Positions 32,418 to 58,359 of a stretch of DNA of 64,000 nucleotides are shown piece after piece. How positions within the stretch are numbered: the first letter of the stretch is position 1; every line of letters begins with the position of its first letter. Under the pieces are notes generated by a model. That model made no database searches, was not told where the DNA came from, and saw only the letters and a program-made list of their open reading frames with translations. Made by a program: the position numbers and the translations under genes. Source of the stretch: Thermoproteota archaeon (GTDB lineage: Archaea > Korarchaeota > JAOZGF01 > JAOZFZ01); assembly GCA_027492035.1 (NCBI GenBank), contig JAOZFT010000020.1, positions 32,001-96,000 of the forward strand. Reading direction: 5' to 3'.

Positions 32418-32447
32418 ATAACAGGAAAACGTGAATTTTTTAAGTTT

Positions 32448-34321: not shown

Positions 34322-34618
34322 ACAATTGGTAAAAATGTCTTTATTTTAGTTTTTAAAAGTAAGGAAAAGGGTTCATGGTTCAATGAAAATTTTTACTTTC
34401 TTTTTGAAAAAGGTTTGTTTTTAGATTTCGGGGACAAATGCTTTAGCAGCTACCGGCAAAAATTCTTCTTTTAAAAGGGAAACCAAAGAAGTGAATGTTT
34501 TCACATTTAATTTGGTTATTTTTAAAAAAAATTATAATATTAAAGAAATATCGAAATTTTTTTAAATAAATTTATCCTATTTAAAACAGAAAATTTCTGG
34601 AAGTGGTGAACTTTACAA

Positions 34619-37116: not shown

Positions 37117-37163
37117 CCCCTAAACTCCTTTTTTTTATTTTTTTTTGAGAAGGAAGATGGGAA

Positions 37164-38414
37164 ATGAGAATTGTTGTTATAGGAACTGGAGGAGCTGGAG
37201 TCAGTGCAGTTGAGGCAATAAGGGAGTATGATAAAGACTCAGAAATATTTATGATATCACGTGAAAACACTCCTCCCTATTCTCCATGTGTTCTTGTAGA
37301 TTACTTTCAGCGAAAAGAAGAAATAGATAAGTTGTTTTGGAAGGGTGAAGATTTCTACAAAAAAATGGATGTTACCCCCCTCTTGGGTAAAGTAGTTAAC
37401 AAAATCAATACAAAAAATAAAAAGATTTCCTTTAACGAAGAAACCCTTGACTACGACAAACTGCTTATTGCTGCAGGAGGTAAAGTAACTCTTCCACCCT
37501 TAAAAGGACTGAACAAAAAAGGGGTCTTCACTTTTAAAACACTTGAAGATGCTGACAAAATCCGGGAATGGATTAAAAAAGGTAAAGTTGAGAAAGGTGT
37601 TGTGATAGGTGGAGGGTTTATAGGTTTAGATGCAGCCATGTGCCTTACAAGTTACGGGGTAAAAGTGACTGTGGTTGAAGCTCTTAACAGGTTGTTACCA
37701 AGGATGCTTGATTACGAAATGGGTACACTCGTGAAAGAAATAGTGGAAAGGAATGGAGTGGCAGTAGTTGTTAATGGCAGAGTTAATGAAATAGTTGGCG
37801 AGGAAAAGGTTGAGAAAGTAAAGTTTGAAAAGGGAGAAGTCTTAGATGCAGAAATAGTAGTAATGGCTACAGGTGTAAAACCAAACACAGAAGTAGTTGA
37901 AGGAACTGATATAAAATTTAATGGCAGGAGGGGAGTGGTTGTAAATGAATACATGGAAACAAGTGTTAAAGACGTTTATGCAGCAGGAGACATTGTTGAA
38001 TCAATTGACATCGTTACAGGGGAGAAAAAACCTATTCTGCTTTGGTCAAACGCTTTGTTGCAGGGTGCAATTGCCGGATATAACCTGATAGGAAGGAAAG
38101 TGAAGTATTTAGGGTCAACAAACCAAACCATAATTAAAGTTTTCAACGTACCCGTTGTTTCAGATGGCAATTATATAGGTGAGGAAATAAAACTTTTCAG
38201 CAGGGACGTGTACAAGAAAATGTACATTAAAAATAACAGGATTTACGGTTACATGTTAATAAACACTAAAAAGAATGCTGGACTTTATAACTCTTTAATG
38301 GTCAGCAAAAAAGACATTTCAGAGTTTAAAGATTTCCTTTTAACTGACGAATTCAATTACGGTAAACTTGTAACTAAAGCAATTACTTTAGAGAAAGAGA
38401 CTTACCAATATTGA
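37164..38414 (+). CDS. FAD/NAD(P)-dependent oxidoreductase (FNOR)
   Basis: IGTGGAG, YSPC, GGGFIG, TSVKDVYAAGD. Confidence 0.88.
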   Translation: MRIVVIGTGGAGVSAVEAIREYDKDSEIFMISRENTPPYSPCVLVDYFQRKEEIDKLFWKGEDFYKKMDVTPLLGKVVNKINTKNKKISFNEETLDYDKLLIAAGGKVTLPPLKGLNKKGVFTFKTLEDADKIREWIKKGKVEKGVVIGGGFIGLDAAMCLTSYGVKVTVVEALNRLLPRMLDYEMGTLVKEIVERNGVAVVVNGRVNEIVGEEKVEKVKFEKGEVLDAEIVVMATGVKPNTEVVEGTDIKFNGRRGVVVNEYMETSVKDVYAAGDIVESIDIVTGEKKPILLWSNALLQGAIAGYNLIGRKVKYLGSTNQTIIKVFNVPVVSDGNYIGEEIKLFSRDVYKKMYIKNNRIYGYMLINTKKNAGLYNSLMVSKKDISEFKDFLLTDEFNYGKLVTKAITLEKETYQY

Positions 38415-38479
38415 TAGGTTTCCTTCTTCACATTAAAACCACTTAAAAAAGAGCCGGTAAAGTTTCAGAAGGGTAAAGC

Positions 38480-39409
38480 ATGAACAAAAATAGCATCTCA
38501 ACCAAGAAAATTCAAAGCTTAAGAAAAGAAACTAAGAAGGTAGTTGAAGCAATAAAGAAAATGGGTGGACAGGGTGCAAAAAAGGATGAAGGGTTTAAAG
38601 TGGTTATAACAGGGAAAGGGGGAGCTGGTAAAACCACAATCACCGCTTTCTTAGCTAGGTTGTTTGCCAAGAAAGGGTATAAAGTGTTAGCTGTAGATGA
38701 AGACCCGCAAATGAACCTACCATTTGCTATAGGCATTTCTCCAGATGAAGCAGCGTCAATAACCCCACTCAGCAGAAACTTGGATTATATAGAAGAGAAA
38801 ACAGGCGCTAAACCAGGTTCAGGCTGGGGACTGCTGTTAAGGCTGAACCCTGACGTGGAAGACGTAGTTGACAGATTCGGAGTTACAGGTCCAGACAATG
38901 TTAATTTACTTGTTATGGGCACTGTGGTGCAAGCCGCAACAGGTTGCCTGTGTCCAGAAAACGCTTTACTTGAAGCTGTAATGAATTATATAGTGCTAAG
39001 GGAGAAAGAAATTGTTTTAATGGATACTCAAGCTGGAATGGAACATTTCGGCAGAGCAATAGCTCGAGGCTTCTCTCAAGCCTTAATAGTCACAGATCCC
39101 TCCTTTAATTCTGTTCAAGTATCTCTAAACCTTGCCAAACTAGCTAAACAACTCAACATAAAAAATATACATTTGGTGATAAATAAGGTAAGGAACCGGA
39201 AAGAGGAGATAAAGGTAAATAAATACTTAAAAACAATGTCTAACATAAGGTTTGATACAGTAACTGTTATACCCTTCGACCCTGTATTGTTGGAGGTAGA
39301 GCCCAGCGTAGAACCCTTTATTACAGAAAAGGAATATTCTTTGGTAACATGGAAAATGATTGATTTAATGGAAACATTAGAGAAATATGCCTTTAAAAAA
39401 GGTAGATAA
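38480..39409 (+). CDS. cooC: CooC nickel-insertion ATPase
   Basis: GKGGAGKT, DEDP, GCLCPEN, DTQAGMEHFGR; within the coo operon. Confidence 0.9.
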   Translation: MNKNSISTKKIQSLRKETKKVVEAIKKMGGQGAKKDEGFKVVITGKGGAGKTTITAFLARLFAKKGYKVLAVDEDPQMNLPFAIGISPDEAASITPLSRNLDYIEEKTGAKPGSGWGLLLRLNPDVEDVVDRFGVTGPDNVNLLVMGTVVQAATGCLCPENALLEAVMNYIVLREKEIVLMDTQAGMEHFGRAIARGFSQALIVTDPSFNSVQVSLNLAKLAKQLNIKNIHLVINKVRNRKEEIKVNKYLKTMSNIRFDTVTVIPFDPVLLEVEPSVEPFITEKEYSLVTWKMIDLMETLEKYAFKKGR

Positions 39410-39414
39410 AAACG

Positions 39415-40485
39415 TTGGAAAGAACAGGTGTAGCTGATTTACCTCTCCATTGGGGGAAAGCCCCTAAATGGTTATTTGAAAGAATGGTTAAGTTAGGAAA
39501 AGGAATAAGTGAAGCAATTATTTTAGAGTATGGGGTAGATGAATTTCTGAAAAGGCTTTCAGACCCTTTCTGGTTTCAGGCATTAGCTTGTGTTTTAGGT
39601 TGGGATTTTCACTCCAGCGGCGCCACAACAGTAACTTGTGCAGCTTTAAAAGAGGCTGTTTCACCTCATGATTTGGGTGTGGCGGTTTTAGGTGGGAAGG
39701 GAAAAACTAGCAGAAGAACACCTGAAGAAATAGAGGAAGTTTCAAAAATATTTTCTTTTTCAACAAATCAAATCAAGGAGTTAAAGTACGCAAGTAAAAT
39801 TTGCTCAAAAATCGACAGCGCAGCTATACAAGACGGTTTCTTTCTTTATCATCACACATTTGTTTTGAACGAAAAAGGAAAATGGGTTGTTATCCAGCAG
39901 GGAATGAGCAGCAAGGCAAGGTTTGCTCGACGTTACCATTGGTTGTCTGAAAAAATAGAATCTTTTGTTGAGGAACCTCATACAGCAATAATTAGTGACT
40001 TAAAGAAGAAACAGGTGTTAAATATGGTGGCTAAAGAAAGCAGAGAAGCTAGAGCTGCATGTGTAGATTTAGTGAAAGAAAAACCTACAAGTTTAAGGGA
40101 ATTCTTTGCTTCTCCATCCAGTTTAGTTAAGTATTTAAAAATGACTCCTAGGCATTGTTTCAATGTTGAAATCTACAAAAAAATTTTGAAACTGCACGAT
40201 TTCCAACCCAGAAACTTTGAAGAATTACTGGCTACAAAAGGGATAGGTCCCTTAACAATTAGGGCCTTAACCTTAATTAGCAAGGTAATTTACGGTGTTG
40301 AACCAAGTTGGAGGGATCCTGTAATGTTTAGTTTTGCGCATGGAGGTAAGGACGGTGTCCCCTACCCTGTTAACCGTGAACTTTATGACAGAAGTACCCA
40401 AATTTTGCAAGAAGCAATTGAAAAAGCTAAAATTGGAGAAAGGGAAAAGCTAAATGCTTTAAAGAAACTAGAAAAATACATGTAA
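39415..40485 (+). CDS. DUF763 family protein
   Basis: ADLPLHWGKAPKWL, WDFHSSG, QDGF.LYHH, ARRYHW, FSFAHGGKDGVPYP. Confidence 0.88.
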   Translation: MERTGVADLPLHWGKAPKWLFERMVKLGKGISEAIILEYGVDEFLKRLSDPFWFQALACVLGWDFHSSGATTVTCAALKEAVSPHDLGVAVLGGKGKTSRRTPEEIEEVSKIFSFSTNQIKELKYASKICSKIDSAAIQDGFFLYHHTFVLNEKGKWVVIQQGMSSKARFARRYHWLSEKIESFVEEPHTAIISDLKKKQVLNMVAKESREARAACVDLVKEKPTSLREFFASPSSLVKYLKMTPRHCFNVEIYKKILKLHDFQPRNFEELLATKGIGPLTIRALTLISKVIYGVEPSWRDPVMFSFAHGGKDGVPYPVNRELYDRSTQILQEAIEKAKIGEREKLNALKKLEKYM

Positions 40486-40499
40486 AAAAATACATGTAA
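40472..40499 (+). repeat. 14-bp tandem duplication at the DUF763 stop
   Basis: AAAAATACATGTAA twice. Confidence 0.7.
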
Positions 40500-40875
40500 A
40501 AAATAACGGGCATGCACAGGTCAGTCAAAGAACTAAGAAGCATAGGGTCTGTATCAGTAGAAATCTTAACGATTACTTTCTTCTCTATAGCCAGTAACTA
40601 CTAAACCAACATTTTTTTCTAGAAGCTCCACTGCATAGGATCTGTGGCTACTTGCGTAAGAAACTATCTAAAAACATTTGTCTCAGCTTCTTAACTAAAT
40701 TGACACTTTAATCAACAAAAATATAAAAAACAACCGTCCAAAATTAAAGAACCCCCTGCCTACTGTTTACTGCTAAGAAGCTGTCTATATTCTCCTTACC
40801 CCACTTTTTAATAAAACACCTGCATCCATCATTGTTTCTATCATTTACCTAGACCCTACACTATGCTTTCTAGGG

Positions 40876-41649
40876 TCATTCATTTATTATTCTTTTTACT
40901 TTTTCTATTTCCTTCTTGAATTCAGCTATTCTTTTTAACTCAACATTTGGTTTAAGTTCTATTGTTAAAGGGCCTTCATATCTTTTTTCTGATAAATATC
41001 TAAGGAAAGATTCAATTTCTTCAGGAATTGGGGTGAGTGGTTCATGGAATTTGGAGCTTACATGTATGTTCTTCACTTCAAAATTTTCAATGTACCGGTA
41101 TGCCTCATTTATTTCTGAAAGATGGGACATGTCAAGTGTTAAACTTAATCTCTTGTTTGTTATTTCCTTCAAGATTTGAGAAACTTCAGTTACTTCTTTT
41201 AAGTTTCTTCCGTAACCTTTAGATCTAGGTGAAAGGTTTTCCAAAGTTAATTCAACACCAGCCTCCTTGCTTGATTTATATAGCTTAGAAAAGATAAAAG
41301 AAACGATCTTTTTCCTCAGTTCCTTATTTGCTTCTTTTGAAACATATGAGTGAACAACTAGGATTGGTGAATCTAGTATGGAGGCTAATTTAATTGATGC
41401 TTCACCATAATAAACTGCTTTCTCAACTTCACTTAATTTCTTAACGTAAAAACCTGCACTGTGAACAGAAGAACAAACCAAATCATTCTTTAAAAGAAGC
41501 CTTCTAAGTTTATGCAGAGATTCATCGGCTTCATTCTCCACACAGAGGGGATTAAATTCAATATGTTTAAAACCTAGTTTTTTTGGTAGGGAGAAATTTT
41601 CTTCTAAGGAATAATTTGAGAAAACCCATGTTGAAATAGAAAGGAACAT
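40876..41649 (-). CDS. Sugar-phosphate isomerase/epimerase (AP endonuclease 2 TIM barrel)
   Basis: SVHS, VVHS, LENL, LDMSH, NIHVS, H.P, TIE motifs. Confidence 0.8.
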   Translation of the reverse strand: MFLSISTWVFSNYSLEENFSLPKKLGFKHIEFNPLCVENEADESLHKLRRLLLKNDLVCSSVHSAGFYVKKLSEVEKAVYYGEASIKLASILDSPILVVHSYVSKEANKELRKKIVSFIFSKLYKSSKEAGVELTLENLSPRSKGYGRNLKEVTEVSQILKEITNKRLSLTLDMSHLSEINEAYRYIENFEVKNIHVSSKFHEPLTPIPEEIESFLRYLSEKRYEGPLTIELKPNVELKRIAEFKKEIEKVKRIINE

Positions 41650-41815
41650 TTCATCACTTCACAATTTTTCAGGAGCAGTTAATCACCCTCTTACTTACCT
41701 CTCTTGCCCCGAAATTTAAGACAACATTTCCCGGAACAGCTTTGCAAAACAAGTAAATAAATATTTTTTCAATTTTTCTGGTAAGGGACTGAACATGAAC
41801 CGGCGAAAAAAGGCT

Positions 41816-42205
41816 TCATAAGTTTTTTAGTATCCCTAGTAACTCTTTTATTTCATCTTTATCTATTTTTGCAATGAAGCAGGTGCCTAAACTAAAAACA
41901 TCTTTGCCGCCAACATTAAATTCTTGGCTGCACAGGCGCCGCCGTAAAGGTATCTCTTTGATTTTCCCGGGTAGACAACTGTAGCTACTGTTAAAGGAGC
42001 TAAACCTATTTGGGAAAGCCAAAACTTTGTTTCAGAAATTTTCTTTTAATGCTTCTCATCCTTTATTACTATAAACTCCCAAGACCGAGTTTTTTGAACT
42101 TGAGGCTAGTTTTACAGCGTTTAAAATTTCAATTAACATTTCCTCCGGCACATCCTTCATCTAAATACTCCTACATTTTTTTCTAAATCGTTTCGCAACC
42201 TTCAT
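41816..42205 (-). pseudogene. Nitroreductase pseudogene
   Basis: Fragments KDVPEEMLIEILNAVKLASSSKN / WEFIVIKD / LAPLTVATVV / AAKNLMLAA / LGTCFIAKIDKDEIKELLGI across frameshifts and stops. Confidence 0.7.
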
Positions 42206-42231
42206 CTCTTCCCCCTCTAGAAAAAGGGAAA

Positions 42232-42525
42232 GTGGCAACATTTATAAAAAATTTTTCGGAAAGTTTTTTGTTTATTGACAAACAGAGGCGTTCTCCTTTG
42301 TATAGGGTTGTAATTGACTATGACAAGTGTATAGGCTGCGGTAACTGTGTTAAAGCTTGCGCAATGGGAGTTTTAGAAATGATAGATGACGAACCTTACC
42401 CTGTAAACCCGAAAGATTGCCATGGATGTCAGGAATGTGAAAAAAGCTGTGAGCAAGGAGCAATTAAAGTTATTTATTTAGGCAATAAAAATAATTCATT
42501 TCTTCGGGAAACAGAGAAAGGTTAA
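42232..42525 (+). CDS. 2x[4Fe-4S] ferredoxin (true start probably TTG at about 42298)
   Basis: CIGCGNCVKAC and CHGCQECEKSC. Confidence 0.85.
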   Translation: MATFIKNFSESFLFIDKQRRSPLYRVVIDYDKCIGCGNCVKACAMGVLEMIDDEPYPVNPKDCHGCQECEKSCEQGAIKVIYLGNKNNSFLRETEKG

Positions 42526-42894
42526 AACCTTTAGAGAGAAACATAAGAGCTTCTTTCCCATTCTTTCACGCAGCAGCCTTTATTGAAAGATTAAAAGTAG
42601 TAAGGAGGCTCTTTTAAGTTTTAAACGCTTAAACTAAAAATACAAGTTAAAAACAGAACAGAGACCTTACGGTACCTGAAACATTAGGTAAGAGAATTAG
42701 GAAAGGTAAAAATGTGGTTAGTTCCGTTCCCATGTCAAAAAGTTTCTCAATTAAACCAAGGGGAGAAGACCTACGTCACCAATTGCTATCAAATCCCAAA
42801 AAGGTTAGCAAAGTCAAAATACTGAGGGAAGTACTTTAAAGAAAGGAAAAAATTAAATTCTTTTTTTGCCTACACTTCTGAGGGAGGTGTTTTT

Positions 42895-44385
42895 ATGGGT
42901 TTTAAACTTGGAGGTGTAAACCCTGCTTTGGTGACTCCTTTCACTAAAGAAGGGGAACTTGATTTAAAAGCTATGGAGAAACTTTTAAAGTTTGTTATAT
43001 CACAGGGCGTAAACGGGGTTGTTCCATGTGGCTCCACGGGGGAATTTACTTACCTCTCTGTTGAGGAAAGGAAGAAATTATTAGAGTTTGTAATAGAGGA
43101 AACTAAAAAAATTGATTCAAAGGTTAAAGTTATAGCTGGTACAGGAGGAAGCAGTACAAAAGAAGCTTTAGAAATGACTAAATTCGCCGAAAAAAGGGGG
43201 GCTGACGCTGTATTGGTTTGCTCCCCCTACTATTTCAAAGTTTCAAATAGGAACCTGTATAACCACTACTACTGCATAGCCCAAGAAACAAGTATCCCAA
43301 TCATAATTTATAACATTCCTCAACTTACAGGTAACAGCATAGACTGGAGAATAATTGAAGACTTAGCTCAACTAGACAATATTGTGGGTTTAAAGGACAG
43401 CAGTGGGAACATGTCTTACTTAATGACTTGTTTAGAAAAGGCAGGTGACAAAATAAATATTGTATGTGGCTGGGATGAAATAGTTTTCCCAGCCTTAGCT
43501 GCAGGCGCAAGTGGAATGATACTTGCAAGTGCAAACATTCTGCCAGATATTTGGGTTGAAATCTATAACAAAATGAAACAAAGCAAGTTAGAGGAAGCTA
43601 GAAAGCTTCAATTCAAAATACAAAAAATTCTGAGGTTAATTGTTAAAAGCGGTGCAGTTGGGGTTAAATCTGCTTTAAAAATGATGGGTTTAAATGTTGG
43701 AAAAAGCCGCAACCCCTTAGCACTCGGTGGAGAACTGAGTTATGAAGACAAGGAAGAATTAAGGATTGAACTGGAGAAACTTGGAAAAATTGAAAAAGAA
43801 AAAGTTGAAATGGAAATTAAGCCAGGGGCTCCATTGGAAAAAAGGTTTGGTGCAATTGGTATTACTCCGAAAAAAATTAAAGATTTCAGTTTAAAAATAG
43901 GTGAAGCCTTATCAGGTTCAGAACCTGAAGTAGCTCACATAGAGGTTTTAATAGGTGAAAAAAATGGTCCAGTAGGAGAAGCATTCGCTAAGGCGAAAGC
44001 AGCCCCCTCCCCTGGACATGAGCCACTGATAGCTATTCTTGAGCCTAATTTGCCGGTTAAGCCAGCAACCTTAATAATACCCACCGTTAAAATTAAGAAT
44101 TTAAGGTCTGCATCTCTTATTTACGGTGCAGCCCAGGCAGCTGTTGCTAAAGCTGTAGCAGACACTGTTAAAGAAGGTTACATACCTGAAGAAGAAGCAG
44201 ATAATTTACTAATTCTGGCAAGTGTTTTCATTCATCCAGCAGCCGTTAACAGGCAGAGAATATACATTAATAACTACAAAGCAATGAGACATGCGTTGAG
44301 ACGCGCTATAGAAAACAGGCCAAACATAAGCGAAATACTAAATGACAAAGAAAAAGCCAAGCATCCCCTCAAGTATGAACCCTAA
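42895..44385 (+). CDS. Fusion: DHDPS/NAL-family class I aldolase + formaldehyde-activating enzyme (Fae) domain
   Basis: N-terminal GSTGE, PYY, YNIP, GLKDSSG. C-terminal (from about 43890) IGEAL.GSEPEVAHIE.LIG.K.GPVGEAF, PGH.PL.A.L.PNL.VKP.TL, QAAVAKAVAD, VFIHP.A, NNY.A, KHP. Confidence 0.9.
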   Translation: MGFKLGGVNPALVTPFTKEGELDLKAMEKLLKFVISQGVNGVVPCGSTGEFTYLSVEERKKLLEFVIEETKKIDSKVKVIAGTGGSSTKEALEMTKFAEKRGADAVLVCSPYYFKVSNRNLYNHYYCIAQETSIPIIIYNIPQLTGNSIDWRIIEDLAQLDNIVGLKDSSGNMSYLMTCLEKAGDKINIVCGWDEIVFPALAAGASGMILASANILPDIWVEIYNKMKQSKLEEARKLQFKIQKILRLIVKSGAVGVKSALKMMGLNVGKSRNPLALGGELSYEDKEELRIELEKLGKIEKEKVEMEIKPGAPLEKRFGAIGITPKKIKDFSLKIGEALSGSEPEVAHIEVLIGEKNGPVGEAFAKAKAAPSPGHEPLIAILEPNLPVKPATLIIPTVKIKNLRSASLIYGAAQAAVAKAVADTVKEGYIPEEEADNLLILASVFIHPAAVNRQRIYINNYKAMRHALRRAIENRPNISEILNDKEKAKHPLKYEP

Positions 44386-44759
44386 AACCTTCTTTCTTTT
44401 TTTATTCCTGGTTTCTGTGTTGAAAAGTTTTAACTCACTTACTAAACTGTTCAGCGTCATCCTTAACATTCTAAAACAGAGTAAATACTTCGTGATTTAT
44501 CGAAGAAATCAAAAAACTGTTTTGGTGAGGAAGTGAAGCTTTAAAACTATGATTTTGCGCCTTTTTTGGCAGTTAAGCCTTTGCTTGAAATTCTGGTTCT
44601 TCGCCCTCACTTGTTTTCTTATAAAGATACAAACTTCATCTCCACTTTTCATGTCAACAGAAAGGTGCGCAAGCTTGTCTTTATACTGTTACTAAATAAG
44701 GCCCCTGTATTTGTCAATTATACTTGTGTAGGTTTTGCCTATTCTGTTCTTTAATTGAA

Positions 44760-46298
44760 TTAACTTCTTTTGTTTTGGGCGAGGTGCTTTATTGTTTCAT
44801 AAGTTTGGAATTCTGGCGCGAGTGAGTCGTAAATTTTAAATTTATCGAACGAAAGAATTTTTGCATCTACACCCATTGTGCCTCCGTGGATAGGGTAAAC
44901 AAATGTAACTTCCTTACGTGTAAAGAAATTGTCAGCTAACGTTAAAAACATCCTTTGCTCCTCCTTACTTAAGTTTTGGCTAAATACTCCCAAGGGAGTT
45001 TTTGTTGTTGCAGCCCAATCTATAAACGCAAACACCGGAACGTTGCCTAACTTTTGTTTAACAATATCTAATCTTTTGCTCCATTTCTCTTCATCAAGCT
45101 CCATTTTCTTTACTTCCTTAACTGAAGGGCTTAATGTGACAAAGTCAAGGTTTGGGGGAGAGTAAGGGTACATTGCTGCACTTAACCAACTGCCAACATA
45201 AACATACTTACCTTTTAATTTTCCATAATCGTGGATTTCGTCCACAATTTTACAAGCTGCTTCGTAACTTTCCTTTACTGCAGAGTGGTTAATGTTTTTT
45301 GTGATCTTAAGAAGCAGATTTGCCTGAGCAAAAAGCATGTCAACCCATATAGCATCTGCACCTGCATCAATTTGTTTCTCTGCCCAGCTTATGAGAAGCC
45401 TTTGAAACCTTGGGTTTGTTATGTCTGGAAAATACGCTGCAGCCTCTTCCGGGCTGTAAAGGCTGCAATCTAAATCTTTAGAAACCCATAATTGTTTTTT
45501 GCCGAATTCACATTGAAATTCCTCCTTTGATACATTAACTCCCCATTTTTGAGGGTCTAGAGCAAGATCCCATGTTTGGGGATACCCTATAATTTCTCCT
45601 GTTTCCGGGTTCCAAACAGCCCCTCTATGGATTATTTGCGCTGGAACTGCTCCGCAAATAATCACGTCAGGCATCTCCGCCTTTATTTCAGAAATTGTTT
45701 TTTCAAGTTTTTCGTAGCTGTAACCGCTGAATTCACATCTCCATCTTGCTTTCTGTGAAGAAAGTTCATTACATTTATTTGGGCAGGGGTTCCACCTCCA
45801 AAAAGCCCTGAAAATAAAGTCCGTCCTTGTCTCTTTGAACAAGCTTATCATTTCCTCTGTGCTTCTGTCTACAACTGCACCGTCAGTTATTCTCTCATAC
45901 AGAGAAGCAACCCTAACTCTTCTTAATTTCTCCTTCGCTTTAACTTCTAATTCTTTGTAGCTTTGGTTTTGTTGAGTTTGAGGTAGTTTTTCAATTTTCA
46001 AAATCTCAACAGGTACCCACATTTGAATAGTGACTACGTCTTTCCTCACTTTTGCTTTGAAATTTATTCTTAAACCGTCTTCTCTAAATTCATCTGGTAA
46101 ATTTAAGGGGTAATATTTTTCACCCTTATCTGTTACAACTCCGTAGAATCCTCCCTCTAAAGGAACATATTTTACTGTACCAGTTAATTCAATGATTCCT
46201 TGCCCTCCCTGAAACGTGCAGCCCAGCAACAGTATCGTCAATAGAAAACCTATGGTAGCCAAAGCTCTGTTTTTTATTCCCCTCTCCTCCAAATTCAT
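44760..46298 (-). CDS. Secreted/lipoprotein hypothetical with small beta domain and TIM-barrel-like region
   Basis: Signal with lipobox-like LLGC; GTVKYVPLEGGFYG domain; YFPDITNP..Q...GADAIWVD resembles glycoside-hydrolase barrels. Confidence 0.65.
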   Translation of the reverse strand: MNLEERGIKNRALATIGFLLTILLLGCTFQGGQGIIELTGTVKYVPLEGGFYGVVTDKGEKYYPLNLPDEFREDGLRINFKAKVRKDVVTIQMWVPVEILKIEKLPQTQQNQSYKELEVKAKEKLRRVRVASLYERITDGAVVDRSTEEMISLFKETRTDFIFRAFWRWNPCPNKCNELSSQKARWRCEFSGYSYEKLEKTISEIKAEMPDVIICGAVPAQIIHRGAVWNPETGEIIGYPQTWDLALDPQKWGVNVSKEEFQCEFGKKQLWVSKDLDCSLYSPEEAAAYFPDITNPRFQRLLISWAEKQIDAGADAIWVDMLFAQANLLLKITKNINHSAVKESYEAACKIVDEIHDYGKLKGKYVYVGSWLSAAMYPYSPPNLDFVTLSPSVKEVKKMELDEEKWSKRLDIVKQKLGNVPVFAFIDWAATTKTPLGVFSQNLSKEEQRMFLTLADNFFTRKEVTFVYPIHGGTMGVDAKILSFDKFKIYDSLAPEFQTYETIKHLAQNKRS

Positions 46299-46518
46299 TT
46301 AATGTTCTAGTGCTACGCCTTTAATCTCCCTCTTAAACCGCTAGCGGTTTTAAAGTTTTATGGATGAATCATTCATTTAAGAAGAATCTTCTCAGAAAAT
46401 AAACTTTCTCTCTTGAGGAAAATTTCCAAGCTTTGACGCGGGAAAAGGACTACAAAATTAGTAAAGCCTAAAAATTAGCTAGTTCTGGATTAACGACCTC
46501 AACTTGAAACCTTGTTTT

Positions 46519-47778
46519 TTAGTCTGTATTCACTCCCGTAGCATTTTTTAAGTTTTCTTTCAACTTAAAGGGGACCATACCCTTTCCCACTATTTCTTCC
46601 CTTAGTTTAAGCATCATTTCAGGCACATCTATTTCCATTGGGCAATGTTTCTTGCATCTTCCACATAATGTACATGTATACGCTATTGGAGCTGCTTTTT
46701 CCAGTCCTCCCAGTAAGAATCTGGTAAGAATAGCCCCTATGCCTCCCATGTAAACGTGGCCAAAATACCCTGAAACTAATGAATAAACTGGGCATTCATA
46801 CAGGCATCCTCCACATCTGAGGCAGTAAAGTGCCTGTCTGTAGACGGGGTCTTTAGCCATTTCCTTTCTTCCATTATCGAGAAGCACTAGATGAAATTCT
46901 TTTGGCCCATGTGCACCGTAAACAATTTTTTTCTCTATGTCTCCTGTTTTGCTTGGGCCTGAGACAATGCTAACATAAGTTGGTGCTTTATAGTTTGCGT
47001 ATCTTGTCACTACTTCAACAAGTAACATGGCGTCTGAAAGAGTTGGAATGACCTTCTCTATTCCTGCAACCACGATGTGTTTTTCAGGTAAACCTGAGAC
47101 AAGCCTTGCATTCCCTTCGTTTTCGATTATGAAGACAGACCCTGTTTCAGCTACAACTGCGTTAGCTCCTGTTAATCCCACATCTGCCTCTACAAATTTT
47201 TGTCTAAGGTAATTCCTTACTTCCTTAACAAGTATAGGGATTTCTGCCGGTAACTTTTTTCCTGTGATTTTTGAAAGCAGTTTTGCCACTTTCTCCCTTG
47301 GAATGTGGATGGCTGGTGAAAGTAAGTGCATAGGTTTACTTTTCAGCTGTTGAATTATGAACTCACCAAGATCTGTTTCAAAAACTTTGCAACCTATTCT
47401 CTCTAGTTCACTGTTAATGTTTAGTTCCTCCATGGTTAAGCTTTTAGACTTAACAACAGTTTCAGCCCCTTTAACTACGCTTTTAACATATTCTAAAGCC
47501 TTATAAGCATTTTCAGCCATGTAAAAGTTTCCCTTAAGATCTTCAACAACGTCTCTCGTTTGCTTAATTAATTCCTCAATTCTTAGAAGCGAATTCTTTT
47601 TTATTTTTCTGAGTTTAGAGGCTTTCCTTTCTACGTAAGGGTAAAGTTTGAAGGCTTCGTCTCTGTTTCTTCTATATGACTCAATAGCTCTTTCAAGAGC
47701 TGTTCTAAGTGAACTGTTGCGGGCGGCAGAGCCAAGCTTTCTTAAGTAGGAATTATAAATTTCATCGTTAACAGACAA
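46519..47778 (-). CDS. lutB: LutB/LldF-like LUD-domain Fe-S protein
   Basis: VKSKS, ETDLGEFI, ENEGNARL, SGPSKTGDIE, CLRCGGCLYECP, CTLCGRCKKHCP. Confidence 0.88.
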   Translation of the reverse strand: MSVNDEIYNSYLRKLGSAARNSSLRTALERAIESYRRNRDEAFKLYPYVERKASKLRKIKKNSLLRIEELIKQTRDVVEDLKGNFYMAENAYKALEYVKSVVKGAETVVKSKSLTMEELNINSELERIGCKVFETDLGEFIIQQLKSKPMHLLSPAIHIPREKVAKLLSKITGKKLPAEIPILVKEVRNYLRQKFVEADVGLTGANAVVAETGSVFIIENEGNARLVSGLPEKHIVVAGIEKVIPTLSDAMLLVEVVTRYANYKAPTYVSIVSGPSKTGDIEKKIVYGAHGPKEFHLVLLDNGRKEMAKDPVYRQALYCLRCGGCLYECPVYSLVSGYFGHVYMGGIGAILTRFLLGGLEKAAPIAYTCTLCGRCKKHCPMEIDVPEMMLKLREEIVGKGMVPFKLKENLKNATGVNTD

Positions 47779-47805
47779 AAATGGGCACCTCTTAATTAGA
47801 AAAAA

Positions 47806-48540
47806 TTAGGTGAGGAACCTAATTAAGAGACCGGAAACATTGGTTACTTTCATTTCCCTGTTCAAGAAGATGTCGACAGCCCTCCTAATTGTTAAGATAC
47901 ATTGGGGACAAGCAGTAACAATAAGTTTCAGGTCTTTAGGGATTTCATCCTCAATTATAAGTTTCCTTGCGGCTATTTTAACTGAAAGAGTAGGGAAAAA
48001 AGAAGCTAGAAGTCCTCCTCCACCGCAACAAATAGATTTTTCCTTTGTATATTTAGGTTTGTAAAGCTTTACATTTGGAATTAAAGAAATTATTTTTCTA
48101 GGTTCCTCGTAAACCTCCATGTGTCTACCAAGTTCGCAAGGGTCGTGGTACATTACTTTCTCTTCCTCTAAGTGTTTAAATTTAGGTTTAATTTTCCCCT
48201 TCTTAATCAGCCCCCAAAGAAACTGTGTAACATGAACTACACCAGGTTTAATTTTCAAACCTAACTTTGACATGTAGAATTCTTTAAAGGCTCTTTGACA
48301 GGCGGGGCAAGGAGTAACAACTAAATTAAACCTATTCAGTGTTTCAATAATTTCTTTAGCGTTTTTCTTTGCTTTATTTCTGAAGCCACCTATTATTAAA
48401 GGGAATCCACAGCATAATTCCTCTTCCAAAGTGGTAACTTCAATATTTAGTTTGTTGAAGAGGGTAAAAATGTTATTAAGGTCATTAGGCAAATTTTTTC
48501 TATAATTGCAGCCCTGCCATAAAAGAACCTTTTTAACCAA
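47806..48540 (-). CDS. CCG-domain (Fe-S)-binding protein (LutA/GlcF/HdrB-like)
   Basis: CCG, CPAC, YHDPCELGR, CCGGGG, ACPQC. Confidence 0.88.
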   Translation of the reverse strand: MVKKVLLWQGCNYRKNLPNDLNNIFTLFNKLNIEVTTLEEELCCGFPLIIGGFRNKAKKNAKEIIETLNRFNLVVTPCPACQRAFKEFYMSKLGLKIKPGVVHVTQFLWGLIKKGKIKPKFKHLEEEKVMYHDPCELGRHMEVYEEPRKIISLIPNVKLYKPKYTKEKSICCGGGGLLASFFPTLSVKIAARKLIIEDEIPKDLKLIVTACPQCILTIRRAVDIFLNREMKVTNVSGLLIRFLT

Positions 48541-48815
48541 GTTTTTTCAACCTTAAAGAAAATTATCTAGACAACTTTGCTAAATTTTTCTTTCTGTTTA
48601 AAAATGTTAACAGTTCTAAAAAAGGAATCCTAAACTTAACACTGGACTCCTTTTAACTTCCTTTAGTTTCCTATATCTCCTCTACATTACTGTAAAATTG
48701 TTGAAAAGAAAGACACAGGTTGAAAAGGAGAAAAAAATAAAAAAATTGTTAGTTGCTGCAGTTTCCTTTGAAACCTTCGAAACTTCCCAGTACTTGAGAA
48801 GAGGGGGGTTCAAAG

Positions 48816-50186
48816 GTGACTGGCACTTTGTCACTGAAGGAAAAAATTCAACGGAAAAAAGCAGTGGTAGCTGTTTATGGATTAGGCTATGTTGGTTTGC
48901 CTCTACTTCTTCAAACAGCAAGTAAAGGGTTTAAAACTGTTGGAGTGGACATAAACAATAAGAAAGTGTTAAAACTTAAGAAAGGCGAAACTGAAGTTTT
49001 AACAAGCCAAGAAAAAAATGTTTTTAAGAAACTAATAGAGGAAGGATTGGTTGAGCTTACGAGTGACGGCAACTATGCTTCAGACAAAGCTGAAGTGCAT
49101 ATTATTTGCGTCCCTACACCTGTGGACGAAGTAGGAATCCCTGACTTAAAATTTGTTGTTGAAGCAGCTGAAACCATAAGCAAGGGTTTAAGGGAGGGTG
49201 AAATTGTTGTTTCTGAAAGTACAAGCTACCCTGGAACTGTAGACTATGTTATTCGCCCTGTACTTGAAAAAACAGGTTTAAAAGCAGGTGAAGATTTCTA
49301 TTTAGCTTTTTCACCGGAAAGGATTTCTCCAGGCGACCCTTACAAGATATCTGAAATCCCCAAAGTTGTCGGTGGAGTGAACAAGGAAAGCACAGACCTA
49401 TCCGCCCTCTTCTACCAGCAAATACTGGATGCCCCAGTGATTCCTGTTTCAGACGCTAAAACAGCTGAAATGACTAAAATGCTGGAAAACATTTACAGAG
49501 TGGTTAACATTGCGTTAATCAATGAGCTTGCAGTGTTTGCAGAGAAACTAGGAATCGACATATGGGAGGTTATAAGGGCAGCTTCAACAAAACCTTTCGG
49601 TTTCCAGTCTTTTCATCCAGGCCCAGGAGTTGGAGGTCACTGCGTACCAGTTGATCCTTTATACTTCTCCTTCCTTGTAAGGAAGATGGGTAAAATTTCC
49701 CATTTCATAGAGTTAGCTACAGAAATAAACAACAAAATGCCTGAGCATGTGGTTGAACTGGTTGAGGCAGCTTTAAACAGCGTCAAAAAAAGCGTTAAAG
49801 GGTCTACCTTATCAATTTACGGTTTAACTTACAAAAAAGATGTCCCAGACCTAAGGAACACTCCTTCAAAAAAAATAATTAAGTTTTTGTTGGAATTAGG
49901 CGCAAAAATAAAGGTTTACGACCCTTACGTAAAAAAAGTAACATTGGGCAATGAAACATTTAAATCAGAAAAGAATGTTTTTGAATGTGCAAAAGGAAGC
50001 GACTGCCTAATTTTCTTAACCGACCACAAAATGTTTAAGTCAATTAACATCGAAGAATTAATTGAAAAAATGAAGGAGAAAATAATTGTAGATGGAAGAA
50101 ACATTTTCGACAGAGAAACATGTGAAAGAAAGGGAATACATTATTTCGCAATCGGGAAACCCATTAAAAAAAGGGGTAGGGTTTGA
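48816..50186 (+). CDS. UDP-N-acetylhexosamine dehydrogenase (WecC/TviB family)
   Basis: GLGYVG, CVPTP, ESTSYPG, SPER, GPGVGGHC, YKKDVPDLR. Confidence 0.9.
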   Translation: MTGTLSLKEKIQRKKAVVAVYGLGYVGLPLLLQTASKGFKTVGVDINNKKVLKLKKGETEVLTSQEKNVFKKLIEEGLVELTSDGNYASDKAEVHIICVPTPVDEVGIPDLKFVVEAAETISKGLREGEIVVSESTSYPGTVDYVIRPVLEKTGLKAGEDFYLAFSPERISPGDPYKISEIPKVVGGVNKESTDLSALFYQQILDAPVIPVSDAKTAEMTKMLENIYRVVNIALINELAVFAEKLGIDIWEVIRAASTKPFGFQSFHPGPGVGGHCVPVDPLYFSFLVRKMGKISHFIELATEINNKMPEHVVELVEAALNSVKKSVKGSTLSIYGLTYKKDVPDLRNTPSKKIIKFLLELGAKIKVYDPYVKKVTLGNETFKSEKNVFECAKGSDCLIFLTDHKMFKSINIEELIEKMKEKIIVDGRNIFDRETCERKGIHYFAIGKPIKKRGRV

Positions 50187-54876: not shown

Positions 54877-56457
54877 TTAAAACAAGTCATAATCTTGCAA
54901 GTAGCTCCTACCTGTTTTTAAAGCTATTTCGGCTTTGTTAAGTTCCTTTCCAAGGTATGCAGCATGAGGAAGGAGGGTAACTAACCCTCTTTTAATTGCT
55001 TCCATATACACATCTACAGACTTTTCTCCCCTGATTATAACATCAGGTTTCTCCCTGTTCCGGAAACTGTAATGTTGCAAAACTATTTCCCTCCTTTCCC
55101 TGTCAACATTTATTTTAAAGAAACCTTTTGGGTCTATGGGTGTCTTATATTGTTTTTCAGCCTTTACAACCTTAACTTCATTCTCTATTGCAGGGTTATA
55201 CAGAAGTTCTTTACTTCTCTTTTCTTTAAAGAAAAGGAGATTTATGGCTAAGTCTTTAGGAAAGGTTCCCCTCTTTCTTGAAATATAAATCATTTTGGAA
55301 GCTTTAATTAATTCCTTCACTGCTCCTTTACATTTATTGCTTTGTTCAGTAGTTAAAACCAAGTTTATACTTAATTCATTCATTATTGCTGCGAGGATAG
55401 CGTTTACACCTATTGAGTCAGCATCTATTGTTTCTGTTATGTTTCCAACTCCGCAAAAGAGCATTTTTTCCGGATGCTTCCTGTGAAAAGTTTTGAATGT
55501 GATTAATGAATCTGTTAAATTCGGCATGTTGACAGGGTTTAAGATTAAGTCGCAAAGGAAATTTTTCACTCCTTCCTCCCTTGCTTTTTCAATGTTTTCC
55601 TCCATAACTTCTATTTTTTCATTTATCTCCACAGGAAAAATCCCTTTTTTGTAATTATACGGTATTATTACAGCAGGTGTTTCCCCTAAGTAACTGGCAA
55701 CCTCTTCTATGTTTCCCCCTTCCAAACTCACCACTAAATCTATACCCTCCTCTACTGCAGCCTTTATTTCCTTAGAAGAAACTGTGTCAATACTTAAGGG
55801 TGCATTACAAACTTTTCTTAAAAAATTAATCAGCTCCTTTACTTTTTCAGGTTTCTCCATGCCTGAAACCATGCCTATATCTATTATGTGGGATCCAGAG
55901 TTTAAGTAATGTTTAACTTTTCTAATTAACTCTTCCTTAGACAATAAGGGGGCGTCAACTATTTCTGCTGCCACCTTAAATGGAAGTCTTTGATCAATGA
56001 CAACTTTACCCCCAATAACAAATGCTTTTTCCTTGTTCAGTAACTCTTTTTCAAGTTTCTTTATTTCATAAAGTTCAGAGGAGGCTTCTTCCTTCCTCTT
56101 TAAATGTAAAATTTCACAGGCTGGAGTTACAGTTGAAAACTTGATTTTCCCCTGTTTAAAAAGGTTAAGAATTTCTCCTAAATCTGTTGATAATTTAGGT
56201 CCCTTAAAAACAGGTAAACCTAGTTTTTCCCCTATCTCCTTTGTGTCTCCCTTAATTAATCCTGGGACCAAAATTAAATCAAAACCACGCCCTCTTAAGT
56301 CCTCCTTCTCCAGTTGTTTAATAATGTTTTTTATGGGAATTAATGAAGCTACGTCAAAAGGCAGAGTTTTAATTTCATAATCTACCTCGCTCCTCTTTAC
56401 ACTTTCATGAACAGACTTCTCGGCCAGTTTACCTGTTACAAGCAACACCTTCAACAT
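54877..56457 (-). CDS. Archaeal dihydropteroate synthase-like protein with C-terminal DUF4346-like domain
   Basis: VLLVTGKLAE, AEIVDAP, IIDIG, SIDT, GVGNITETIDADSIGVN, DPKGFFKI, HAAYLGKEL.KAE. Confidence 0.85.
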   Translation of the reverse strand: MLKVLLVTGKLAEKSVHESVKRSEVDYEIKTLPFDVASLIPIKNIIKQLEKEDLRGRGFDLILVPGLIKGDTKEIGEKLGLPVFKGPKLSTDLGEILNLFKQGKIKFSTVTPACEILHLKRKEEASSELYEIKKLEKELLNKEKAFVIGGKVVIDQRLPFKVAAEIVDAPLLSKEELIRKVKHYLNSGSHIIDIGMVSGMEKPEKVKELINFLRKVCNAPLSIDTVSSKEIKAAVEEGIDLVVSLEGGNIEEVASYLGETPAVIIPYNYKKGIFPVEINEKIEVMEENIEKAREEGVKNFLCDLILNPVNMPNLTDSLITFKTFHRKHPEKMLFCGVGNITETIDADSIGVNAILAAIMNELSINLVLTTEQSNKCKGAVKELIKASKMIYISRKRGTFPKDLAINLLFFKEKRSKELLYNPAIENEVKVVKAEKQYKTPIDPKGFFKINVDRERREIVLQHYSFRNREKPDVIIRGEKSVDVYMEAIKRGLVTLLPHAAYLGKELNKAEIALKTGRSYLQDYDLF

Positions 56458-56513
56458 TTTCTACCTCTTATTGTTTGTTCTTTACCAATGCTTTCTAAAC
56501 CTTGCCTAAGCCT

Positions 56514-57269
56514 TTACGTCTCCAGTATTTCATTGATTTTAGTTAGCAACCTGGTAGGTTCTTCAACAACCACTACTCCCTTCATTTTTCTTAGTTTATT
56601 AACGTTTTCAACATCTACTTCTCTAGTTTCTATTTTTGCTTTCTCCCAACAAGCTACTGCTTGGAAGGGACATGCTGAAACACATTTTTCGCAGCCTATA
56701 CATTTCAAAAGATTTATTTTTGGGCCTTCCTTGGTTGATTCTATAGCCTCAACCGGACAGTTTGTTAAGGCCGTGCATTCCTTACAGTTTAAACATTTTT
56801 CGCGTTTGATTATGCAAGGAAGCGTAATTTCTGTTTCTCCCAGCTTTGAATCCACAGGTAAAACAATCACTGGAACTTTGCCTTTCAAAGCTTGGGCGAA
56901 AGCATTTGTAACACATGTGTCAGCCACTCCATTAACCATTTTAGCGACGGAGTTTGCTGTAACAGGTGAAACAGCAAAAACTTTGTATTTTCTTAGATTG
57001 AAACGGCCTGAAAAAACTCCACTAGCCCCATCTGTTTCTCTGCTTACCAATTCTTCGTAATAAAGGCCTGGGGAAATTTTCTTAATTTTATCTCTTAAAC
57101 CGTACATTCTGAGAATCTCTAACCCTGCTTCACTAACGAAGGTAGTTACTTTTACACCGTACTTTTGTTTAATCCCCAACATTATTTGGTAGGTTTCGAA
57201 AAGAAAAGTTCCTGAACCTGTAACTCCCCAGGCAAGCTTCAATTCTTCCCTCAATACTTCACCCCTCAA
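56514..57269 (-). CDS. dmrX: Dihydromethanopterin reductase (flavoprotein + 2x[4Fe-4S])
   Basis: AWGVTGSG, SPVTANSVAKMVNGVADT, PVD, CLNCKEC...CP, CIGCEKCVSACP. Confidence 0.8.
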   Translation of the reverse strand: MRGEVLREELKLAWGVTGSGTFLFETYQIMLGIKQKYGVKVTTFVSEAGLEILRMYGLRDKIKKISPGLYYEELVSRETDGASGVFSGRFNLRKYKVFAVSPVTANSVAKMVNGVADTCVTNAFAQALKGKVPVIVLPVDSKLGETEITLPCIIKREKCLNCKECTALTNCPVEAIESTKEGPKINLLKCIGCEKCVSACPFQAVACWEKAKIETREVDVENVNKLRKMKGVVVVEEPTRLLTKINEILET

Positions 57270-57420
57270 ATTTTAAACCAACAAATGCTTTTAAGACCAT
57301 TTTTAAATCCTTAAATGCTTCAATTGTTCTTCTAAAGGAATAAATAAGGGAGTTAAAAGTCATTACGGAAGTAGCTTATTTCAGGTTTTTAATGGTTTGA
57401 GAGATCACTTCCGAAAAAAA

Positions 57421-58359
57421 TTATTTTAACTCAAATTCCTTTCTCAACTGTTCTAAAGTAGCATGGTACTCAGCCACTAAGTTATGTTCATGAATGCTCT
57501 CTAAGTCTTCTTGAATAAGGGAAACTTCTGTTTCATCAGGTAAATTCGGGAATTTATCAATTACTCCCTTCGCCATGTACCTTATCACATCCTCAGCAAA
57601 CCTTGCTTTCTTCACAGCTTGCTTAACAACTTCAATTTCATCTTTCTTCTTCAATAATTCAAAAGTTGGGGCACTCATTGCATTCCTTGCTATCTCGATC
57701 AGTGTGTAAGCATTAACAGAATAATTCCCTGGAACCTCAACCACTAACGTAGCGTAGCTTCGCTGCATGTGGGTTGCAATAAACAGTTTTTCAACAAGCT
57801 TCTTCACTTTTTCTTCATTCCCTATATCCCTCTTTAAAGAATCCATTGTCTCCAAGAGAATGCTTTTCTGGGCGCTGGGGCAAGCAGTTATCCCGCTTAC
57901 TTTAACCCCTACAGCCTTCTTTATTTTTATTTTCTTTTTTATCCTTTCAGCTTTAGCAGATCCTAGAAGTACAGCTCTTTCAAATGTCTCCTTCCCTGTT
58001 ACAGGTGTTTCAGTAGGATAAACCACATCACCTTGTAAAATAACTTCCGCCTTTCTACAGTAAGGATGCTTCTGCAAAAGCTCCTTTGCCACTCTGCTGC
58101 AGAAAACTTCAATTTTCAATTTTTTCTTTGCATACCTTGAAAGAACCTCAACTATGGCTTCATAATTCCTTGAAGCATGGATTCCGCGGTAGTCAGGAAC
58201 TAAGTCAATGAAAGCAGAGACAGAAGGGACAAAAGCTGCTGTTTTATGGTTTATGTCGATAGAAAAAACAGGCACTCTAATATTTTCAACACCAACCCTT
58301 TTAAGATAAATACGAAACAAAGGTTTCTCAACATTTACGTCTGAAATGAGGGAAGGCAA
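57421..58359 (-). CDS. mptA: GTP cyclohydrolase MptA/FolE2 family
   Basis: LKRVGV, RGIHASR, TACP, THMQR, LKKKDE, FAEDVIR, ESIHEH. Confidence 0.88.
   Translation of the reverse strand: MPSLISDVNVEKPLFRIYLKRVGVENIRVPVFSIDINHKTAAFVPSVSAFIDLVPDYRGIHASRNYEAIVEVLSRYAKKKLKIEVFCSRVAKELLQKHPYCRKAEVILQGDVVYPTETPVTGKETFERAVLLGSAKAERIKKKIKIKKAVGVKVSGITACPSAQKSILLETMDSLKRDIGNEEKVKKLVEKLFIATHMQRSYATLVVEVPGNYSVNAYTLIEIARNAMSAPTFELLKKKDEIEVVKQAVKKARFAEDVIRYMAKGVIDKFPNLPDETEVSLIQEDLESIHEHNLVAEYHATLEQLRKEFELK

Follow-up and report, generated by a model that had tools for sequence, protein, structure and literature searches.

Which reaction would call for an aldolase of the dihydrodipicolinate synthase (DHDPS; DapA) family and a formaldehyde-activating enzyme (Fae) in a single polypeptide? 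The question is raised by a gene in a 64,000-nt stretch of DNA from a Thermoproteota archaeon (GenBank assembly GCA_027492035.1, contig JAOZFT010000020.1, positions 32,001 to 96,000 of the forward strand), the whole of which we call the window. A preliminary description, made from the letters of the window, had proposed that the aldolase half cleaves 4-hydroxy-2-oxobutanoate (HOB) or a similar compound to pyruvate and formaldehyde, and that the formaldehyde is passed on to tetrahydromethanopterin (H4MPT). Our analysis shows that the gene product is a two-domain protein, in which a Schiff-base pyruvate-aldolase-type domain without the DapA arginine is joined to an intact Fae domain, that DHDPS-Fae is a widespread two-domain family, and that the gene is not DapA. 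The most economical reading of this architecture, and our leading hypothesis, is a bifunctional enzyme that would interconvert HOB plus H4MPT with pyruvate, methylene-H4MPT, and water. We favor it tentatively, and would put it somewhat below an even chance.

An aldolase and a formaldehyde-activating enzyme share one reading frame

The preliminary description reported an aldolase-Fae fusion in a single open reading frame (ORF), and we found both Pfam domains there; the ORF begins with ATG, encodes 496 residues, and occupies 42895..44385 of the (+) strand, exactly as first delimited. An AlphaFold2 model, for which 18 fusions were aligned, contains two well-folded domains (mean predicted local distance difference test score [pLDDT] 83.7; barrel mostly >90, Fae about 80–88), with a linker that falls below 50 at residues 304–331. 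Its top Foldseek match is the DHDPS of M. jannaschii (2yxg, TMt 0.96). The two families differ in oligomeric state, DHDPS being a tetramer and Fae a pentamer.

We searched a collection of 5.8 billion proteins for homologues, and all 120 of the best matches listed carry both Pfam domains in one protein (58–99% identity, mostly 492 aa). This domain-architecture search, which the preliminary description had suggested, shows that the fusion is not an assembly artefact. A representative library, clustered at the 50% level, additionally contains about 13 clusters of full-length fusions, reaching down to 34% identity. The metagenome-assembled genomes (MAGs) that carry fusions are labeled Bathyarchaeota/Bathyarchaeia, Thermoproteota, 'Atabeyarchaeum', Lokiarchaeota/Promethearchaeota, Thorarchaeota, and Anaerolineae, and their source records name the protein either '4-hydroxy-tetrahydrodipicolinate synthase' or 'formaldehyde-activating enzyme'. 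The fusion of Fae to an aldolase is already known from Fae-Hps (Hps, 3-hexulose-6-phosphate synthase); the partner from the DHDPS family makes a new combination, on which we found no paper in the literature searched, a scope that excluded most subscription journals and supplements.

A scan of GTDB at one genome per species yielded 151 relatives, and the counts given below for 80 genome loci refer to the best 80 of these, which are labeled as 79 Bathyarchaeia and one 'Krumholzibacteriaceae' contig. In the latter (L088, labeled Krumholzibacteriaceae bacterium), the fusion lies beside the TrmI and 84-aa neighbors of the Bathyarchaeia type, and the contig is probably archaeal, binned into a bacterial MAG. 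The genome of the window (G000; 1.87 Mb, 93% complete) is not from Bathyarchaeia; its class comprises 3 species representatives and its phylum 43. Within that phylum, the fusion occurs in five of the 43 genomes (G000–G004) and in none of the other 38. It is full-length in the window genome and in G001, where it is 68% identical to ours, is represented by a contig-end fragment in G002, and forms a tandem pair in each of G003 and G004.

The aldolase domain keeps its pyruvate site and lacks the DapA arginine

We compared the aldolase site with those of four E. coli K-12 enzymes, DapA, NanA, YagE, and YjhH, at the positions T44, T45, Y107, Y133, R138, K161, G186, D187, D188, I203, and N248 (E. coli DapA numbering). 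Across these columns, DapA reads TTYYRKGDDIN, NanA STYYLKGYDIV, YagE SGYYLKGYDIF, and the window protein STYYLKGWDIG. The window protein shares its states with NanA, YagE, and YjhH at T44/T45, Y133, R138 (Leu), and K161; the pyruvate-binding and Schiff-base residues, with the S/T-T carboxylate motif among them, are kept. The column of Arg138, a residue that we take to bind the carboxylate of aspartate semialdehyde in DHDPS, is occupied by Leu144, the residue also found in NanA, YagE, and YjhH. The earlier observation that Tyr and Lys are retained and Arg138 is lost therefore stands, with YNIPQLTG of the query aligned to YNVPSRTA of the M. jannaschii enzyme 2yxg.

The loss of the arginine is a property of the family. 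Among the 80 genome loci, the column holds Cys in 69, Val in 9, and Ala in 2, with Arg in none; in the set used for phylogeny, none of the 22 fused domains has Arg, against 51 of 122 stand-alone representatives. The aldolase Lys, the aldolase Tyr, and the Fae His are each present in 80/80 genome loci, and the Schiff-base Lys in 16 of the 18 aligned fusions. We considered a role for Trp (W193) in filling the aldehyde pocket and dropped it, since the position is His in most fusions. A phylogeny of 149 rows, built with FastTree only, places all 22 fused aldolase domains on one side of a branch with SH-like support of 99, together with three fusion fragments and one 296-aa protein. E. coli DapA sits in a separate clade of 36 rows, and all 35 other members of that clade carry Arg138.

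By profile, the window protein passes the dapA equivalog cut-off (TIGR00674, 243.8 > 206.15), and its top sequence match among PDB structures is a DHDPS, with YagE and N-acetylneuraminate lyase (NAL) structures at 149 and 145 bits. The preliminary description had advised looking for a separate canonical dapA. A second, stand-alone gene of the DHDPS family does exist (window genome contig C20:38752-39618; locus L001:1492-2385 +; 297 aa, 39% identical to the fused domain), and its product has Phe at Arg138, so that it is not canonical. It too exceeds the dapA cut-off (242.1 > 206.15). TIGR00674 therefore does not separate DapA from such aldolases, which explains the systematic misnaming. The ORF that follows the stand-alone gene resembles, by eye, the alpha subunit of a 2-oxoacid:ferredoxin oxidoreductase.

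The remainder of the diaminopimelate (DAP) pathway is missing as well. In the 93%-complete window genome, the best dapB match scores 36.1 bits against a cut-off of 122 and lysA has no match, while two genes exceed the cut-off for LysX_arch (327.3 and 298.3 > 275.6). Lysine is thus not made via DAP, and evidently is made by the LysW/aminoadipate route. The loss of Arg138, the separate clade, the lack of dapB and lysA, and the presence of LysX together led us to reject a true DapA.

The Fae domain is intact and sits in an H4MPT-using genome

A full Fae domain with its AHI-motif His had been claimed, and the profile and sequence alignments bear this out: PF08714 is matched over positions 1–158 of 159, and the His, which we take to be catalytic, aligns with that of M. 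extorquens Fae (1Y5Y, 117.5 bits). The domain exceeds the NCBIfam equivalog cut-off for Fae (TIGR03126, 203.1 > 118.05) and is 54% identical to a stand-alone Fae encoded elsewhere in the window genome.

A pterin biosynthesis cluster about 10 kb away had been offered as support for H4MPT use, and we located it downstream of the fusion, at a distance of 10.5–14 kb (54877-58359, −). Its three genes encode a DHPS-like protein (TIGR00284, 379 > 256.65), MptA (TIGR00294, 276.8 > 220), and a DmrX-like dihydromethanopterin reductase of the flavoprotein/Fe-S type, which at 250.8 falls 0.55 bits below its cut-off (TIGR02700, 251.35). Mch and Mer (423.6 > 348.7) are encoded elsewhere in the genome, as is, apart from the fusion, a stand-alone Hps (202.3 > 200). 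Within the phylum, Mch is present in 5/5 fusion genomes vs 12/38 others, although these genomes are kin and not independent observations. These findings support the presence of both H4MPT biosynthesis and H4MPT-linked one-carbon (C1) enzymes in the organism.

The region 10 kb upstream (31401-39409) encodes functions other than pterin synthesis. It holds a Mo/W-type ABC transporter (SBP_bac_11, a permease, and an ATPase with a TOBE domain), followed by a CO-dehydrogenase set comprising a CooF-like ferredoxin, a CooS-type CO dehydrogenase (Prismane family, 626 aa), an FAD/NAD oxidoreductase, and a CooC-like ATPase.

Table 1. Coordinates within the window of the fused gene, its domains and key codons, and the nearby pterin cluster
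Feature	Coordinates	Strand	Basis
Whole fused ORF, 496 aa (span with stop)	42895..44385	+	Both domains in all 120 listed homologues
DHDPS-family (beta/alpha)8 class I aldolase domain, residues 5–291	42907..43767	+	PF00701, E 1e-79; 2yxg TMt 0.96
Tyr139 codon, equivalent of E. coli DapA Tyr133	43309..43311	+	Alignment; Tyr in 80/80 genome loci
Leu144 codon, at the DapA Arg138 position	43324..43326	+	Arg in 0/22 fused domains and 0/80 loci
Lys167 codon, Schiff-base Lys, equivalent of DapA Lys161	43393..43395	+	Lys in 80/80 loci
Linker, residues 292–334	43768..43896	+	Helix 283–295, then low-confidence stretch; sequence partly conserved among fusions
Fae domain, residues 335–492	43897..44370	+	PF08714 positions 1–158/159, E 2.1e-60; TIGR03126 203.1 > 118.05
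His348 codon, Fae AHI-motif His	43936..43938	+	Aligned to 1Y5Y His; His in 80/80 genome loci
H4MPT biosynthesis cluster (context): DHPS-like, DmrX-like flavoprotein/Fe-S, GTP cyclohydrolase MptA	54877..58359	−	NCBIfam profiles

A proposed hydroxymethyl transfer between a 2-oxo acid and H4MPT

Aldolases of the DHDPS family form an enamine of pyruvate on their Lys; with formaldehyde as the aldehyde, the product is HOB. In the mechanism we propose, the N-terminal domain would be a class I (Lys167 Schiff-base) pyruvate aldolase of the DHDPS/NAL superfamily from which the aspartate-semialdehyde site of DapA has been lost, and the C-terminal domain would be a working Fae that condenses formaldehyde with H4MPT. 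Together, the two would move a hydroxymethyl group between H4MPT and a 4-hydroxy-2-oxo acid by way of formaldehyde, most likely HOB + H4MPT ⇌ pyruvate + 5,10-methylene-H4MPT + H2O. Toxic free formaldehyde would be handed from domain to domain, in parallel to the proposal made for Fae-Hps. The case for HOB is one of analogy with Fae-Hps and of family chemistry: we infer the pyruvate donor from that chemistry and formaldehyde as the aldehyde from the fusion partner, and interdomain channeling and flux direction are conjectural in the same way. HOB itself could be derived from homoserine by transamination or, more speculatively and by analogy with the YagE/YjhH pentonate route, from the dehydration of a C4 sugar acid.

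The preliminary description had gone on to see in this reaction a natural 'homoserine-type' C1 link. Neither the gene neighborhoods nor the distribution of homoserine dehydrogenase lends specific support to that link or to the HOB substrate pair. Homoserine dehydrogenase is encoded in 32 of the 43 genomes of the window's phylum. Three complete Bathyarchaeia chromosomes with the fusion lack it; their ThrC-like matches fall below the cut-off, so auxotrophy is an equally good reading there.

Several observations weigh against the proposed reaction. The G-x-D-E signature that follows the Lys strand is also seen in aldolases whose aldehydes are polyhydroxylated, and a larger aldehyde is possible on that account. 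The window genome encodes both a stand-alone Fae and a stand-alone Hps, and its capture of formaldehyde would thus need no fusion. Homoserine dehydrogenase occurs in 3/5 fusion genomes of the phylum and is absent from 9 fusion-free ones; this distribution is not complementary, and we rejected the idea that the fusion replaces the route from aspartate to homoserine. We found no conserved neighbor that makes or uses HOB in the three lineages whose neighborhoods we compared, namely Bathyarchaeia (81 loci including the window), the window's phylum, and Anaerolineae-type metagenome loci (67, at 63% GC); nor is an aminotransferase, dehydrogenase, or homoserine gene a conserved neighbor in any of them. 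The low-confidence linker leaves the AlphaFold2 model placing neither active site relative to the other. Finally, the proposed model accounts neither for a second, His-less paralogue in many genomes nor for two clusters that lack the Schiff-base Lys.

Paralogues without the Fae histidine and the case for a larger aldehyde

The fusions fall into a 'long' and a 'short' subfamily. Members of the former, the window protein among them, retain the Fae His together with a conserved C-terminal tail; those of the latter (429–480 aa) have lost both that His and the last part of Fae. The two types often occur in tandem, the His-less copy being the upstream one, as in G003:C158, in G004:C44 (L091:8002-10685), and in the Anaerolineae-type metagenome loci (L093-L159); of the 60 such metagenome loci with a recognized fusion, 38 have a second copy. 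In the Anaerolineae-type pairs, the upstream copy carries Gln at the position of the Fae His in 35/37 cases and the downstream copy carries His in 34/34, and both copies keep the aldolase Lys and Tyr. The two fused clusters without the Schiff-base Lys, defined at 50% identity, have Ala (P0130) or Leu (P0135) in its place, and P0135 has lost the Tyr as well. As an aside, the longest contig listed is 79,585 bases both for P0135 and for P0301, which belongs to the P0130 cluster, so the two may be neighbors. The paralogue pattern and the Lys-less clusters suggest hetero-oligomers or non-catalytic roles for some copies.

Chiefly on account of this pattern, we retain a substantial rival, in which Fae does not act just by trapping formaldehyde. 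The aldolase would instead act on a larger 2-keto-3-deoxy (sugar) acid, as do YagE/YjhH, 2-keto-3-deoxygluconate aldolase, and NAL, and release an aldehyde other than formaldehyde, and Fae would serve independently, as a scavenging, oligomerization, or pterin-binding module. The window site signature STYYLKGWDIG is closest to those of NanA and YagE, the YagE and NAL structures are strong sequence matches, and a subfamily that has lost the Fae His as well as the C-terminal portion of the Fae domain, and yet is conserved, points to a possible non-catalytic role for that domain. On the other hand, the conserved neighbors include no dehydratase, kinase, or transporter for sugar acids, the Fae domain bears its His in 80/80 genome loci, and the other common fusion partner of Fae, Hps, is a formaldehyde enzyme. 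On balance, we consider a sugar-acid substrate unlikely, though it is the alternative we take most seriously.

Gene neighborhoods differ among lineages

In Bathyarchaeia (L009-L088), the tRNA m1A methyltransferase TrmI (GCD14 family) lies directly downstream of the fusion in 66 of the 71 loci with 800 nt or more of sequence on that side, the median gap being 9 nt. The other conserved neighbors there are proteins of unknown function of 430, 248, and 84 aa and, in 13/81 loci, a malate/lactate dehydrogenase (Mdh). The largest, a divergent protein of 430–446 aa without a Pfam family, lies upstream of the fusion in 58/81 loci, and a search of the ESM Atlas with a 445-aa representative gave no usable match. 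When TrmI and the three unknown proteins were used as queries against the window genome, only TrmI had a homologue, on a different contig. In the Anaerolineae-type loci, where a tandem fusion copy is common, the neighbors include TrmO (17/67) and S-adenosylhomocysteine hydrolase (AhcY; 15/67), and TruD lies between the two fusion copies in L132.

These associations raise the possibility that the fusion serves methionine/S-adenosylmethionine or tRNA-modification metabolism, perhaps by supplying or removing a C1 or C4 unit for the methyl cycle. TrmI is the most conserved neighbor in Bathyarchaeia, and TrmO, S-adenosylhomocysteine hydrolase, and TruD point the same way in the Anaerolineae-type loci. 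None of these genes, however, accompanies the copies in the window, G001, or G004; the association was noticed post hoc, and synteny within one class may be inherited. We regard this explanation as improbable.

A second group of Anaerolineae-type neighbors has a C1 character: MttB-family methyltransferase genes (4), corrinoid protein genes (2), and a pterin methyltransferase gene (1) adjoin the fusion in 4 of the 67 loci. This rare context fits C1 metabolism, and the neighborhoods name no substrate. In two such loci (L101:11659-19859 and L110:2977-8401), the genes adjoining the fusion encode an IclR regulator, a pterin-binding methyltransferase, a hydantoinase-like protein, a corrinoid protein, and an MttB-family methyltransferase; in L110, a Liv-type ABC transporter, the MttB-family gene, and the corrinoid protein gene lie directly upstream of the fusion. 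Searches with Rfam returned no credible riboswitch or other RNA in window positions 38000-50000 and none beside the fusion in six bacterial-type loci, where the sole match was PYLIS_3 in L101 (17634-17733), 6 kb away.

The window copy is flanked by genes for a ferredoxin, a xylose-isomerase-like TIM-barrel protein, an unknown 512-aa protein, and LutB/LutA-like proteins. The 512-aa ORF (44760-46298, −) has an N-terminal hydrophobic, lipobox-like start and no Pfam or NCBIfam match. At 46519-48540 (−), 2 kb downstream on the opposite strand, a LutB/LldF-like protein with LUD and 4Fe-4S domains and a CCG-domain (LutA/HdrB-like) protein are encoded; both are below their equivalog cut-offs, and the pair may serve lactate or 2-hydroxyacid oxidation. 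Farther on, a nucleotidyltransferase is fused to a CDP-alcohol phosphatidyltransferase (51702-53645, +), an architecture presumably like that of the di-myo-inositol-phosphate synthesis enzymes of hyperthermophiles. The fusion of G001 has a PfkB kinase upstream, and that of G004 a radical-SAM/SPASM gene and a methyltransferase gene nearby.

Pantoate synthesis and the DapA name

The donor might also be a 2-oxo acid other than pyruvate. As one example, the fusion would be an H4MPT-dependent analogue of PanB and make ketopantoate from 2-oxoisovalerate and methylene-H4MPT, since products of this kind would be expected if formaldehyde is attacked by the enamine that a 2-oxo acid forms with the Lys. 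PanB (PF02548) is indeed absent from the window genome and from 4/5 other fusion genomes tested. The five genomes without PanB (G000, G003, G043, G044, and G045) nevertheless also lack the archaeal phosphopantothenate synthetase (PPS, PF02006), and so have no evident use for pantoate, while G001 has PanB and PPS together with its fusion; moreover, enzymes of the DHDPS family are, as a rule, specific for pyruvate. The joint absence of PanB and PPS in five genomes and their joint presence in G001 disfavor a PanB analogue, and we hold it to be quite improbable. The PanB model also had no match in M. jannaschii or M. acetivorans, two of our 14 control genomes. Methanogens have a gap in pantoate synthesis, and these negative controls fit it.

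That the protein is a genuine DapA of this organism, joined to Fae for some reason unconnected with that role, is the reading embodied in the names given by annotation pipelines and can point to the dapA cut-off and to DHDPS as the nearest structure by sequence and by fold; the Leu in place of Arg138, the position outside the Arg138 clade, the lysine pathway of the genome, and a dapA model that admits an Arg-less stand-alone paralogue leave it with hardly any credibility.

Implications and comparison with known systems

If the proposed HOB reaction is correct, it would constitute a new natural way of making or breaking a C–C bond that connects central metabolism with the C1 pool carried by H4MPT. 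Its hosts would include uncultured archaea that rank among the most abundant in anoxic sediments, and synthetic C1 assimilation would gain a ready-made, formaldehyde-shielded aldolase. A bolder version, which we think unlikely, holds that abundant anaerobic sediment lineages possess a dedicated natural enzyme for pyruvate + CH2=H4MPT ⇌ HOB. This would be an unrecognized C1+C3→C4 branch of the Wood-Ljungdahl/H4MPT pathway, a natural counterpart of the engineered HOB-aldolase step, and the catalytic paralogue would assemble with the His-less one into a hetero-oligomer. The carriers of the enzyme would be MAGs labeled Bathyarchaeia, Loki- and Thorarchaeota, and Anaerolineae, along with the window's own small phylum. 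Whatever the reaction, pipelines have named hundreds of such proteins '4-hydroxy-tetrahydrodipicolinate synthase', and paralogues without the arginine pass the curated dapA model; where a metabolic reconstruction has deduced lysine synthesis via DAP, or 'Fae', from genes of this family, it is probably in error.

Fae-Hps (tetrahydromethanopterin hydro-lyase / 3-hexulose-6-phosphate synthase, NF009833) is the closest precedent. It was named in the preliminary description as the known Fae fusion, and it is indeed the only one well represented: the best 120 longer Fae-containing proteins comprise 117 Fae-Hps, one Fae joined to a methylene-H4MPT-dehydrogenase N-domain, and two without an informative partner. 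Both Fae-Hps and the window protein combine Fae with an aldolase, which in Fae-Hps makes or breaks a C–C bond to formaldehyde, in H4MPT-using archaea. An excerpt of one study argues that the Fae-Hps fusion serves to 'immediately capture formaldehyde' released by the aldolase (PMC5241800). The two differ in that Hps belongs to the orotidine-monophosphate-decarboxylase family, whereas the window partner is a class I Lys-Schiff-base barrel of the DHDPS family, and in that Fae is N-terminal in Fae-Hps and C-terminal here. Accordingly, NF009833 matches only the Fae half of the window protein (positions 2–161/392, 187.9 < 274), and the Hps domain PF00215 has no match in it.

With DapA/DHDPS (TIGR00674), the window protein shares its fold (TMt 0.96 to 2yxg), its Lys/Tyr core, and its highest overall sequence similarity; it differs in having Leu for Arg138 and Gly for Asn248, in its separate clade, and in the absence of dapB and lysA from its genome. 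YagE and YjhH, which are 2-keto-3-deoxy-pentonate/gluconate aldolases, and NanA, the N-acetylneuraminate lyase, are likewise class I pyruvate aldolases with Leu at Arg138 and an aromatic residue followed by Asp after Gly186, but they belong to another clade, are not fused to Fae, and take C2–C6 aldehydes as partners. PanB and GlyA would resemble the fusion in the net transfer of a hydroxymethyl group between a methylene-pterin and a carbon acid, by folds and mechanisms unrelated to it.

The proposed chemistry itself, pyruvate + formaldehyde ⇌ HOB, has a counterpart in the synthetic homoserine cycle. As excerpts of a review describe it, the HOB-aldolase step of that cycle is a promiscuous activity of E. 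coli RhmA, and HOB is a non-native metabolite (PMC8879981); measured against that account, a dedicated natural HOB enzyme would be new. So described, the engineered pathway draws on a side activity of RhmA, an unrelated class II enzyme, whereas the window protein would be a putative dedicated natural enzyme coupled to H4MPT.

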